From assembly GCF_003334355.1 (NCBI RefSeq), contig NZ_QOWP01000085.1: 1,567 nt of DNA, one strand, 5' to 3'. The notes beneath the pieces are model-generated. The model was not told the origin of the DNA. It did not search any database and saw nothing but the letters and a program-made list of their open reading frames with translations. Below are positions 1 to 1,567 of the stretch, piece by piece. The stretch comes from Escherichia coli (lineage in GTDB: Bacteria; Pseudomonadota; Gammaproteobacteria; Enterobacterales; Enterobacteriaceae). The translations under genes and the position numbers were made by a program. The stretch's first letter is position 1; every line of letters starts with the position of its first letter.

Positions 1-1145
1 GACGATGCGGCTGCCGTTTTTGAGGATTCTGCACGGGTTTCCGACGCTTTCGCGTTCGTTTCGGATGTCTTCGCTGCGGAAGCAGACTTCGCTGCTGCGC
101 TGGCCTGTACAGCGGCTTCGCCAGCATTCGTTGTGGCTGTTGAAGCTGACGATGCAGCACTTTCTGCCGATTTTCCGGCGGCGGTGGCACTGGCTGAGGC
201 CTGCCCGGCACTTGTTGACGCGGCACTGGCAGATAATGCAGCCGCTGTTTTTGAGCCTGCCGCAGCTGAGGCGCTCTGTCCCGCTGCCGTTTCAGAAGAC
301 CTGGCGTTCGTCTCGGACGTTTTTGCCGCCTTCGCAGAATTTGCTGCCGCCGTTGCCGAGGAAGCGGCACTACTGGCGCTCGAGGCTGCGCTCGTTTCTG
401 ATGATTTTGCCGCCTCTTTTGAGGCCGCCGCATCCCGGGCTGAGGTGGCAGCTTCTGACGCCTTCGTGGTCGCGGCGGATGCAGAAGTGGCTGCTGATTG
501 TTGTGACGCTGCCGCATTCGTTTCTGACGTTTTCGCCGCAGCGGCACTGGTAGCTGCCGCGCTTTTTGAGGACTCTGCAGCAGCAGCACTTTTCGATGCT
601 TCACTGGCCTTTGTTGATGCCGTTCCTGCGCTGGAAGATGCTGACTGAGCAGATGATGCAGCCTGTCCGGCTGACGTGCTGGCGGCACGAGCTGAGCCTG
701 CAGCATCGGTTGTATGAGTTGCCGCCTCACTGGCAGATGTGCTGGCATCACTGGCTGACTTCTTCGCGGCTGCCGTGTTCTGTGCCACTGCGGACGCGTT
801 ACGCGCCACCTCTTCCACCATCAGTTCAAAACGTCGCAGAGCCTCCGGACGGGCATCATCCTCCGTCATGGCACCGAGAAAATCATTCAGCGTACCGGGT
901 CGGGAATCTTCATACACGGTGATGGTCCCGGCATGTGACGGCGGGAATCCTTCCACCAACAGAATAACGCTGTACTGACCGTACTCAACGTCCATGCTGT
1001 AACGCCCGGCTTCATCCGGATTTTCTGAGGCCAGCGTGTTCACCACCACCGCGGTGCTGTTACGTTTTGCTTTCAGCTGGATTGTGCAGTTCTGTACCGG
1101 TTTTCCTGTGCCGTCTTTCAGTACACCTGAAATCTTTACTGCCAT
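1..1145 (-). CDS. stf: Side tail fibre protein Stf (lambda orf-401-like), N-terminal 381 codons; 3' end runs off the window at position 1
   Basis: Hand translation of the minus strand from ATG (plus-strand 'cat' at 1143-1145) gives MAVKISGVLKDGTGKPVQNCTIQLKAKRNSTAVVVNTLASENPDEAGRYSMDVEYGQYSVILLVEGFPPSHAGTITVYEDSRPGTLNDFLGAMTEDDARPEALRRFELMVEEVARNAS, followed by a long Ala/Ser/Thr-rich region. The frame is open for 381 codons with no stop to the window edge. The N-terminus matches my recollection of lambda Stf/orf-401 and the gene sits directly downstream of lom as in lambda. Not in the ORF track because it lacks an in-window stop. Confidence 0.9.
   Translation of the reverse strand, partial: MAVKISGVLKDGTGKPVQNCTIQLKAKRNSTAVVVNTLASENPDEAGRYSMDVEYGQYSVILLVEGFPPSHAGTITVYEDSRPGTLNDFLGAMTEDDARPEALRRFELMVEEVARNASAVAQNTAAAKKSASDASTSASEAATHTTDAAGSARAASTSAGQAASSAQSASSSAGTASTKASEASKSAAAAESSKSAAATSAAAAKTSETNAAASQQSAATSASAATTKASEAATSARDAAASKEAAKSSETSAASSASSAASSATAAANSAKAAKTSETNARSSETAAGQSASAAAGSKTAAALSASAASTSAGQASASATAAGKSAESAASSASTATTNAGEAAVQASAAAKSASAAKTSETNAKASETRAESSKTAAAS
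3..806 (-). repeat. Protein-level heptad repeat array within stf (about 38 contiguous heptads, consensus x-[T/S]-S-A-[S/E]-x-A)
   Basis: Splitting Stf residues 114-379 into consecutive heptads gives Ser at position 3 in 31 of 38 heptads, Ala at position 4 in 25 of 38, and Ala at position 7 in 37 of 38, with no phase shift across the array. Counts are from hand translation. The DNA itself is not an exact tandem repeat. Confidence 0.7.
807..1145 (-). other. Stf N-terminal non-repetitive domain (residues 1-113), the part of phage tail fibres that usually attaches to the tail
   Basis: Residues 1-113 have mixed composition (aromatics, Pro, charged residues) with no heptad periodicity, in sharp contrast to the downstream Ala/Ser array. 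The attachment role is taken from general knowledge of lambdoid and other phage fibres, not shown by this sequence. Confidence 0.5.
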
Positions 1146-1148
1146 ATT

Positions 1149-1154
1149 CACCCC
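1149..1154 (-). promoter_or_regulatory. Putative Shine-Dalgarno region for stf
   Basis: Minus-strand sequence upstream of the stf ATG is ...UUUUUUGUGGGGUGAAU-AUG. The G-rich run GGGGUG sits at -9 to -4 relative to the A of ATG. Weak match to the GGAGG consensus; spacing is acceptable. Confidence 0.35.
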
Positions 1155-1156
1155 AC

Positions 1157-1183
1157 AAAAAAGCCCGCCTGAACAGGCGGGCT
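1157..1183 (-). terminator. Rho-independent terminator downstream of lom (minus-strand orientation)
   Basis: Minus-strand RNA would read AGCCCGCCU-GUUC-AGGCGGGCU followed by UUUUUU: a perfect 9-bp GC-rich stem (plus-strand 1162-1170 pairing with 1175-1183), 4-nt loop, and a 6-U tract (plus-strand A-run 1157-1162). It lies 27 nt after the lom stop. In the plus orientation no U-tract follows the hairpin. Confidence 0.65.
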
Positions 1184-1209: not shown

Positions 1210-1567
1210 TCAGAACTTATAACCGACACCCACGATGAAACCGTCAGTGCGCCAGTCGCCACTGCCGGAGCCTTCATAAGCAATATCAATGGCCACGGAT
1301 TCGGTCGGGTTAAACTGCACGCCAGCTCCCCACGCCAGAGACGTGTTGCTGTGGCGACCGTCATCACTTCCGGTCAGCACGTCGTGCGTTTTCCCCTTGT
1401 TGTCAGTTACGCGGAGATAATCCCCGGAGAAAGTCGACACACGGCTGTAAGCCATACCCGCCATCGCATACGCGCTGAACCATTCATTCACGCGCACAGA
1501 CGGCCCCGCCATCACGCTGAACCAGCGGTTACGCACGGAATCTTCATGCCAGCGGGTATCGCTGTAA
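1210..1567 (-). CDS. lom: Lom outer membrane beta-barrel protein (Ail/Lom/OmpX/PagC family), C-terminal ~118 codons; true start lies beyond position 1567
   Basis: Minus-strand translation reads ...YSDTRWHEDSVRNRWFSVMAGPSVRVNEWFSAYAMAGMAYSRVSTFSGDYLRVTDNKGKTHDVLTGSDDGRHSNTSLAWGAGVQFNPTESVAIDIAYEGSGSGDWRTDGFIVGVGYKF then TGA (plus-strand 'tca' at 1210-1212). The frame stays open upstream of the track's GTG at 1536 through to the window end. The C-terminal aromatic residue and alternating hydrophobic last strand are typical of outer-membrane beta-barrels. Sequence matches my recollection of lambda Lom. Confidence 0.9.
   Translation of the reverse strand, partial: YSDTRWHEDSVRNRWFSVMAGPSVRVNEWFSAYAMAGMAYSRVSTFSGDYLRVTDNKGKTHDVLTGSDDGRHSNTSLAWGAGVQFNPTESVAIDIAYEGSGSGDWRTDGFIVGVGYKF

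Follow-up and report, generated by a model that had tools for sequence, protein, structure and literature searches.

An uninterrupted Ala/Ser heptad array in the proximal shaft of a lambdoid side tail fibre from Escherichia coli

Introduction

How can a fibre shaft be built from a polypeptide that consists largely of alanine and serine, and over what length is its seven-residue register kept? This question is raised by a stretch of Escherichia coli DNA of 1,567 nucleotides (the window), the minus strand of which encodes the N-terminal part of a prophage side tail fibre (Stf). A sequence-only reading of the window had described 38 consecutive heptads with Ser at position 3 and Ala at positions 4 and 7, and had proposed that they form an alanine-core, probably trimeric, coiled-coil rod without stutters.

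Lambda Stf was listed among the long prokaryotic coiled-coil proteins in a proteome survey of 2005 (PMC1322226). Ghosh et al. (2012) gave the name PCoil to the segment that follows PfN (PF08400) in E. coli prophage fibres and described its heptad as Ala-x-x-Ala/Ser-x-x-Ser, which is the pattern found here when read from position 4 (PMC3368898). The domain, its heptad, helicity and trimeric state, and the rule that lengths differ by multiples of seven, are already known from publications of 2012 and 2025. To this, the present analysis contributes a formal test of periodicity, the complete extent of the array and its exact difference of 15 heptads from lambda, together with a family-wide survey of the register including its exceptions, codon evidence, and a charge-exclusion argument for an Ala/Ser core.

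Results

Gene context of the array

The minus strand of the window is free of stop codons from position 1145 to position 3 and starts with an ATG at 1145. Its translation of 381 codons corresponds to Stf residues 1–381, so that residues 114–381, which comprise the Ala/Ser heptad array, map exactly to positions 806 to 3 (minus strand). Upstream of stf, the window holds the 3' end of lom (1210–1566, minus strand), encoding an Ail/Lom outer-membrane β-barrel; the translation ends with ...GVGYKF and a stop codon, and the assignment agrees with the RefSeq annotation of an identical locus. The stretch that separates the stop codon of lom from the start of stf contains a strong hairpin resembling an intrinsic terminator (1152–1183, minus strand; AGCCCGCC-TGTT-CAGGCGGGCT followed by a T-run), for which the terminator scan gave a 9-bp stem with 7 GC pairs; the hairpin proper occupies positions 1183 to 1162. 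In the mEp460 record, a "terminator" feature is listed beneath the matching segment. The list of open reading frames further contains an antisense frame encoding 171 residues opposite the array (133–648, plus strand). It is unlikely to be a gene and more probably reflects the scarcity of stop codons opposite the Ala and Ser codons; its counterpart in lambda is the annotated orf206b, which lies antisense within orf-401.

A lambdoid prophage found in two complete E. coli genomes matches the window at 100% identity, and several lambda-like phages do so at about 96%. According to the annotation of one of the complete genomes (NZ_AP027886), gpJ is followed by Ail/Lom (lom), stfR and the gene of a tail fiber assembly protein, which is the J–lom–stf–tfa order of the lambdoid tail module, and the locus adjoins pinQ/ydfK/ynfT/ydfJ. 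The complete Stf, taken from the 100%-identical prophage (L001:6423-9821), comprises 1,132 residues. Judged by its database relatives, this allele is a common longer version of the protein, as more than 100 clusters at 90% identity have the same length.

Domain organization of Stf

The N-terminus of Stf is formed by the PfN or phage_tail_N domain (PF08400; residues 1–134, window positions 744–1145, minus strand; Pfam E 5.5e-71). Residues 1–94 match the collar domain of the Ur-lambda tail fiber protein (PDB 9e7m, E 1e-50), to which they are homologous and which docks on the tail tube. Directly in front of the array are two hydrophobic heptads (residues 100–113, PEALRRF ELMVEEV; 807–848, minus strand), which are in phase with it: the register table places Leu103, Phe106, Met109, Val110 and Val113 at heptad positions 4, 7, 3, 4 and 7.

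C-terminal to the array, a Pf2-type motif leads into gp34/gp37-like domains. A Gp34_trimer domain was found at residues 663–762 and a Collar domain at residues 907–954; Mu gpS (5yvq/8ju3) matches from about residue 440, and the tip of T4 gp37 (PDB 2xgf) matches residues 902–1132 with an E-value of 2.8e-84, a region outside the window that represents a gp37-related receptor-binding tip. The N-terminal collar domain, the tail-module gene order and this C-terminal tip mark the protein as a lambdoid side tail fibre, the proximal shaft of which is formed by the Ala/Ser segment.

No Pfam model matches residues 135–662, the NCBIfam search returned no family, and PHROGs assigns generic "tail fiber protein" families only. 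When the whole protein or residues 101–526 were searched against PDB sequences, no solved structure of the array was found and only its flanks were matched, by 9e7m (residues 1–94) and by 5yvq/8ju3 (residue 440 onward).

Periodicity and extent of the array

Numbering the heptads from residue 114 gives 38 complete units in the window (residues 114–379). Position 7 is Ala in 37 of these and Val in the remaining one, position 3 is Ser in 31, and position 4 is Ala in 25, with Glu, Lys, Thr or Gln in the others. The pattern of the 38 heptads described previously is thus borne out by the counts, and the same applies to the period of seven. For the Ala indicator, the Fourier power amounts to 28.8 at a period of 3.5 residues and to 21.2 at a period of 7, with maxima of 8.1 and 6.9, respectively, in 2,000 shuffles (mean about 1); for Ser, the power at period 7 is 15.6 (shuffle maximum 7.7 in 2,000 shuffles).

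As had been anticipated, the array runs past the window edge. In the full gene the same register continues for another 11 heptads to residue 456, giving 49 heptads or 343 residues, in which position 7 is Ala in 47 heptads and Val in two, position 3 is Ser in 37 and position 4 is Ala in 34. Ala accounts for 39%, Ser for 24% and Thr for 11% of the residues, and only 5 of the 343 are bulky aliphatic (three Val, one Leu and one Ile).

No stutter or phase break could be detected by any of three approaches. A Viterbi tracker with seven phases returned a single array with zero shifts. Between residues 107 and 450, the local phase of the 3.5-residue Ala period varies by no more than about 0.3 residue; since an artificial deletion of 3 residues caused a clear jump in this test, a real phase break would have been seen. 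Moreover, the 25 strongest autocorrelation lags are all multiples of 7, with a mean identity of 0.42 at these lags and 0.21 elsewhere.

Leu/Ile/Val-type residues, which occupy the a and d positions of canonical coiled coils, do not form the candidate core columns of the array; these consist of Ala and Ser. The array is therefore coiled-coil-like but of a small-residue, alanine-zipper-like class. In agreement with the definition of PCoil, it is a low-complexity, Ala/Ser-rich A-x-x-A/S-x-x-S heptad repeat located directly after PfN.

The repeat exists at the protein level

A period of seven residues could be a by-product of the expansion of a 21-bp DNA repeat by slippage, in which case the register would be structurally unconstrained. 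Traces of such a repeat can be observed: most direct repeats in the DNA lie a multiple of 21 nt apart, and lags of 21n give a higher autocorrelation of the DNA (0.44 vs 0.37). However, these direct repeats are weak, dispersed and only 60–83% identical, which does not amount to a minisatellite-like array of 21-mers with head-to-tail copies at least about 70% alike, and Tandem Repeats Finder reported no repeat in the window. On these grounds, an origin by DNA slippage was rejected. The codons at the conserved positions point in the same direction. Ala at position 7 is encoded by GCA (16), GCG (15), GCC (10) and GCT (6), and Ser at position 3 is drawn from both the TCN and the AGY families. Such scrambling of synonymous codons largely refutes slippage, and so does the preservation of the same column pattern in divergent relatives at 60% identity or less. 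Slippage as the source of the register is therefore highly improbable. Scrambled codons at conserved positions in combination with the absence of a tandem repeat in the DNA indicate that the periodicity is selected at the level of the protein.

Length and register in related fibres

Alignment with lambda orf-401 is free of gaps up to residue 302 and then shows a single gap of exactly 105 residues, which equals 15 heptads and reduces the array from 49 heptads here to 34 in lambda. Homologues in the database number roughly 5,300. For a broader comparison, two sets of relatives were used. The close set consists of 121 database relatives; as its ranking favours sequences of equal length, the top 120 are uninformative on length variation, which was judged instead from representatives clustered at 50% identity.

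In the close set, 118 of the 121 sequences have the same spacing, and three carry an indel of 3 residues: two have lost ASS from the array and the third has gained AAG there. Each of these three records is partial, and two are singleton clusters. Among the representatives, the start anchor and the K-G-I-V-x-L end anchor are both present in 25, and the distance between the anchors is a multiple of seven in 21 of these. The 21 in-phase sequences fall into seven distinct lengths of 17, 18, 20, 33, 34, 42 and 49 heptads. The four remaining representatives were traced to out-of-register junctions; in one (P0143), residues 128–380 are lost between two AAA tracts, a deletion of 253 residues or 36 heptads plus 1. 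Hence, the phase is largely kept across homologues and length differences are multiples of seven with exceptions, but the register of the array is not inviolable, as the indels in 3 of 121 close relatives and the altered phase in 4 of 25 representatives demonstrate.

Array lengths in the family range from 28 to 394 residues, and the longest (P0263, 394 residues) is unbroken. Since 105 of about 121 arrays of at least 56 residues are without a register shift, stutter-free arrays are the norm of the family and the Stf described here is not the longest of them. The lack of stutters, which had been called unusual, is accordingly exceptional in comparison with coiled coils in general but not among these fibres. 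The survey also includes fibres of the EPclA type, which bear a collagen domain: one such representative (P0169) is 66% identical over PfN and the array, with a single gap of 7 residues. As the alignment runs through both PfN and the array, the arrays of the two types of fibre are homologous.

Evidence for a trimeric α-helical rod

The available evidence is best accounted for by a proximal shaft in which three parallel Stf chains form a thin, left-handed α-helical coiled coil with very small core residues, the length of which changes in whole heptads. We assign this reading a probability of roughly 0.87. It agrees with the rod proposed from sequence, which is supported by published work on homologues (PMC3368898, PMC12617516) and by structure prediction, with a refinement of the core that is described below.

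Many phage fibre shafts are β-structured, and the C-terminal half of the same Stf matches the β-rich gp34 and gp37 domains. Consequently, a triple β-helix or β-spiral, as in T4 gp12, gp34 and gp37 or in adenovirus, had to be considered, with the seven-residue period corresponding to β-repeats. However, AlphaFold2 (AF2) predicted neither a β-rich nor a disordered region for residues 92–500, but one continuous helix (residues 98–483) with a mean pLDDT of 71. The prediction was made on a single chain and with no alignment and is uninformative on the oligomeric state; the extension of the helix into the Pf2 motif is probably an over-prediction. Whereas the helicity of the array itself is thus a prediction, circular dichroism was measured on a homologue: a PfN-PCoil fragment is α-helical and displays a sharp, cooperative and reversible melt at about 49–52 °C (PMC3368898). 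The composition of the array, with 39% Ala, no Gly/Pro pattern and hardly any Val, Ile or Leu, favours a helix as well. A β-structured shaft is therefore hardly credible.

The array could also be a low-complexity flexible linker or an isolated single α-helix, with trimerization left to the C-terminal domains. Its core is devoid of classical hydrophobic residues, no Pfam model covers it, and an Lpp variant with a fully alanine core (Ala-14) forms no stable trimers in solution, so that the stability of a small-residue core is not self-evident. Direct measurements on the homologous PCoil argue against this possibility. SEC-MALLS showed PfN-PCoil to be trimeric and PfN on its own to be largely monomeric, and the melt of the fragment is cooperative; PCoils, Marcoil and MultiCoil gave high scores with a preference for the trimer (PMC3368898). 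Moreover, the register is conserved and lengths differ by multiples of seven, as reported for PCoil (PMC3368898) and found here, but a linker would not need a register. Finally, selection at position 3 favours Ser and admits neither Thr nor Gly. A linker or single helix appears quite unlikely in the light of these data.

A third arrangement retains the helices but not their parallel orientation. In an antiparallel Alacoil, the chains would fold back on themselves or on their neighbours into a hairpin bundle. The sequence does carry the Alacoil signature of a small residue at every seventh position, with Ala at position 7 in 47 of 49 heptads here and in 94% of 2,418 heptads of the family, and the literature on honeybee silk connects Ala-rich cores with Alacoil-like packing. 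In addition, an AlphaFold3 model of full-length lambda gpStf was folded back. However, its authors rejected this model because it disagrees with cryo-ET, in which the proximal rod is extended and rotates as a rigid body (PMC12617516). An extended stalk was also observed in rotary-shadowed EPclA (PMC3368898), and the N-terminal collar and the C-terminal tip have to be located at opposite ends of the fibre. The Alacoil is consequently improbable, if somewhat less so than the other alternatives.

A trimeric rod, in turn, corresponds to the arrangement described for Ur-lambda in 2025 by cryo-EM and cryo-ET. There, the fibre is a trimer present in four copies per virion, and residues 102–393 of gpStf were modelled as a trimeric proximal coiled coil, which starts at residue 102; a trimeric bundle was seen in the first ~120 residues (PMC12617516). 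The model was generated by AlphaFold3 in segments and fitted to low-resolution cryo-ET tomograms (PMC12617516). The 12 StfN chains in the 9e7m entry are consistent with four trimers per virion. Furthermore, alanine-zipper trimers are structurally precedented by mutants of Lpp-56 with a superhelical radius of 5.2 Å.

Positions likely to form the core

For the assignment of core positions, 2,418 heptads from 105 arrays were compiled, with one phase per array that was set by the most Ala-rich column only. Position 7 is Ala in 94% of the heptads, with Val as the main alternative, and is charged (Lys, Arg, Glu or Asp) in 0.4%. Position 3 is Ser in 71% and Ala in 13%, with essentially no Thr or Gly, and is charged in 6%. 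Position 4 is Ala in 66% but charged in 25%, a fraction as high as that of the surface positions. This column pattern does not change when only sequences at 60% identity or less to the query are counted.

On a heptad wheel, position 7 is located in the centre of a stripe of small residues, flanked by positions 3 and 4 at about 51° to either side. The pairs 4/7 and 7/3 both have the 3+4 spacing of a and d positions. Since charged residues are kept out of positions 7 and 3 and yet admitted at position 4, Ala7/Ser3 is the likelier of the two to be buried as the a/d pair. Going by these composition statistics, Ala7/Ser3 most likely represents the a/d pair and Ala4 a flanking e position. The earlier assignment of the two Ala columns to the a/d core therefore holds with respect to their spacing, but Ala4 is the less likely core residue in view of the charge content of its column.

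Discussion

Proposed architecture of the shaft

In the parallel trimeric coiled coil favoured here, Ala7 of each heptad would face the axis, with Ser3 and Ala4 on either side of it. The bundle would begin with the hydrophobic heptads 100–113, immediately behind the flexible linker that comes from the collar domain, and these heptads probably serve to nucleate it and to set its register. With its small-residue core, the trimer may be thin and tightly packed and in this respect resemble the alanine-zipper variants of Lpp-56. As a stiff spacer, the rod connects the collar on the tail tube with the hinge and the receptor-binding distal part of the fibre. Calculated at 0.148 nm per residue, residues 102–456 would span about 52 nm, compared with about 37 nm in lambda. 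Because the heptads are nearly equivalent, the length could shift by in-register recombination or deletion in steps of ~1 nm, and such changes by whole heptads would have yielded the relatives with 17 to 49 or more heptads.

Comparison with related and analogous coiled coils

The closest characterized counterparts are lambda Stf and the PCoil of EPclA and EPclB. Lambda Stf is orthologous: its N-terminal 300 residues align without gaps, the array has an identical register, and its collar domain has been solved (9e7m). However, the array described here has 15 more heptads, so that its predicted rod is about 15 nm longer, and the distal part is longer and composite (1,132 vs 774 residues for the proteins), including the Gp34_trimer domain. 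The PCoil of EPclA and EPclB (PMC3368898) shares the location directly after PfN/PF08400, the Ala/Ser heptad (positions 4-7-3 in the numbering used here) and the variation in length by whole heptads. It differs in extent, since the region scored as coiled coil in EPclA and EPclB comprises roughly 145 residues (101–245) in contrast to 343 in Stf. The Stf array also contains fewer Glu residues, and it is followed by the Pf2-type motif and the gp34/gp37-like domains instead of a collagen triple helix.

Outside of phage fibres, the Lpp-56 mutants from Ala-5 to Ala-14 provide the nearest structural likeness, being parallel trimeric coiled coils with an Ala core and a reduced superhelical radius (5.2 Å). 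They have no sequence relationship to Stf, are short and, in the all-Ala version, unstable in solution, whereas the small-residue core of Stf spans 49 heptads and has a conserved Ser column. Long Ala-rich heptad arrays in which small residues occupy positions a, d, e and g are also found in the silks of honeybee and hornet and in MSP3 of Plasmodium vivax. The silks, with arrays of about 210 residues, are heterotetramers; they have neither sequence nor function in common with Stf and do not belong to phage fibres.

Implications for fibre length and design

Engineered lambda delivery particles already make use of chimeric fibres for which N-terminal parts of Stf, the shaft included, provide the scaffold (PMC11338833). 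Insertions and deletions of whole heptads are tolerated by the shaft and are the way in which it evolves in nature, and most natural junctions are in register, which results in a simple design rule for the choice of fusion points and of fibre reach. The practical value of this rule is modest. For the biophysics of coiled coils, a stutter-free rod of 343 residues with an Ala/Ser core is an extreme case of a small-residue core.

A more far-reaching proposal is that the shaft represents a distinct "alanine/serine zipper", in which a small polar core would be formed by Ala in the a position and by Ser in the d position, where strict selection for Ser would exclude both Thr and Gly. The near-identical heptads would render the rod length-quantised and freely recombinable between fibres with different anchors, such as Stf, fibres of the MWYREG type and giant gpJ-like central fibres. 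We regard this as a tentative idea that may well prove wrong in part or as a whole. If it is true, few of the known coiled coils would exceed the 49–56 stutter-free heptads of these fibres in uninterrupted length; tropomyosin has 40 heptads, fewer than these arrays. Phages could then tune the reach of their fibres in steps of ~1 nm.

A terminator-like hairpin and an antisense frame around stf

On the minus strand, the stop codon of lom (position 1210) and the start of stf (position 1145) flank a strong hairpin resembling an intrinsic terminator (window 1152-1183, minus strand), which consists of a 9-bp stem with 7 GC pairs followed by TTTTTTG. A terminator feature is likewise annotated beneath the window match in the record of the lambda-like phage mEp460. 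Owing to this position between lom and stf, expression of stf would require read-through of the late transcript or antitermination.

Opposite the Ala/Ser array, the plus strand contains an open reading frame of 171 aa (window 133-648, MAVEADDAALSADF...), the equivalent of which is listed in the lambda reference annotation as orf206b, a 'hypothetical protein'. This is probably not a gene but merely a stretch that the GCN and TCN codons leave poor in stops.

Composite distal part of Stf

The portion of Stf that follows the array (residues 457-1132; complete gene at L001:6423-9821 in the identical prophage, outside the window) is composite. It combines a Mu gpS-like Pf2 segment (residues 440-521), a T4 gp34 trimerisation domain (residues 663-762), a second Mu S-like stretch (residues 813-907) and a T4 gp37-like tip (residues 902-1132), as a result of which Stf is 358 aa longer here than in lambda.

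In phage PhiR30_1 (L002:5423-8816), which is 96.6% identical to the window, three separate CDSs are annotated as 'side tail fiber protein' (5423-6826, 7225-8586 and 8589-8816), and the gene is therefore interrupted there. This arrangement is reminiscent of lambda PaPa, where a frameshift splits stf into orf-401 and orf-314. For some tail fibre entries among the homologues (P0002, P0012 and P0015), the name given at source is 'short-chain fatty acid transporter, partial', which is evidently a misannotation.

Register and reuse of the array

Alleles that break the register are rare (P0024, P0087, P0028, P0143, P0144, P0157 and P0156). The small indels within their arrays comprise an ASS deletion, found twice, and a single AAG insertion, while one group carries a deletion of 253 residues (36 heptads plus one residue) with an AAA tract on each side. 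These alleles may represent functional stutters, genes of defective prophages or assembly errors.

Despite an N-terminal anchor unlike that of Stf (MWYREGTITF...), the homologues P0141 and P0263 (1,422 aa), both of which end in a chaperone-like C-terminal region, share the array of Stf. Residues 145-493 of P0141 are 87% identical to Stf 145-496, which places a mosaic junction inside the array. In P0263 the array runs for 394 residues without a phase shift and thus exceeds the one studied here.

Four further homologues (P0212, P0215, P0217 and P0234) come from metagenomic siphophages and are giant central tail fibres resembling gpJ. P0212 comprises 3,903 aa (L004:8001-19712) and contains the FNIII-A_GpJ domain PF24801, and its gene has tape-measure, Phage_tail_L and NlpC/P60 genes as neighbours. 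The four giant fibres possess 6-13 separate Ala-rich heptad arrays, each of about 40-236 residues, with non-repeat spacers of roughly 150-370 residues between them; the Stf-type shaft module is therefore used repeatedly within one protein.
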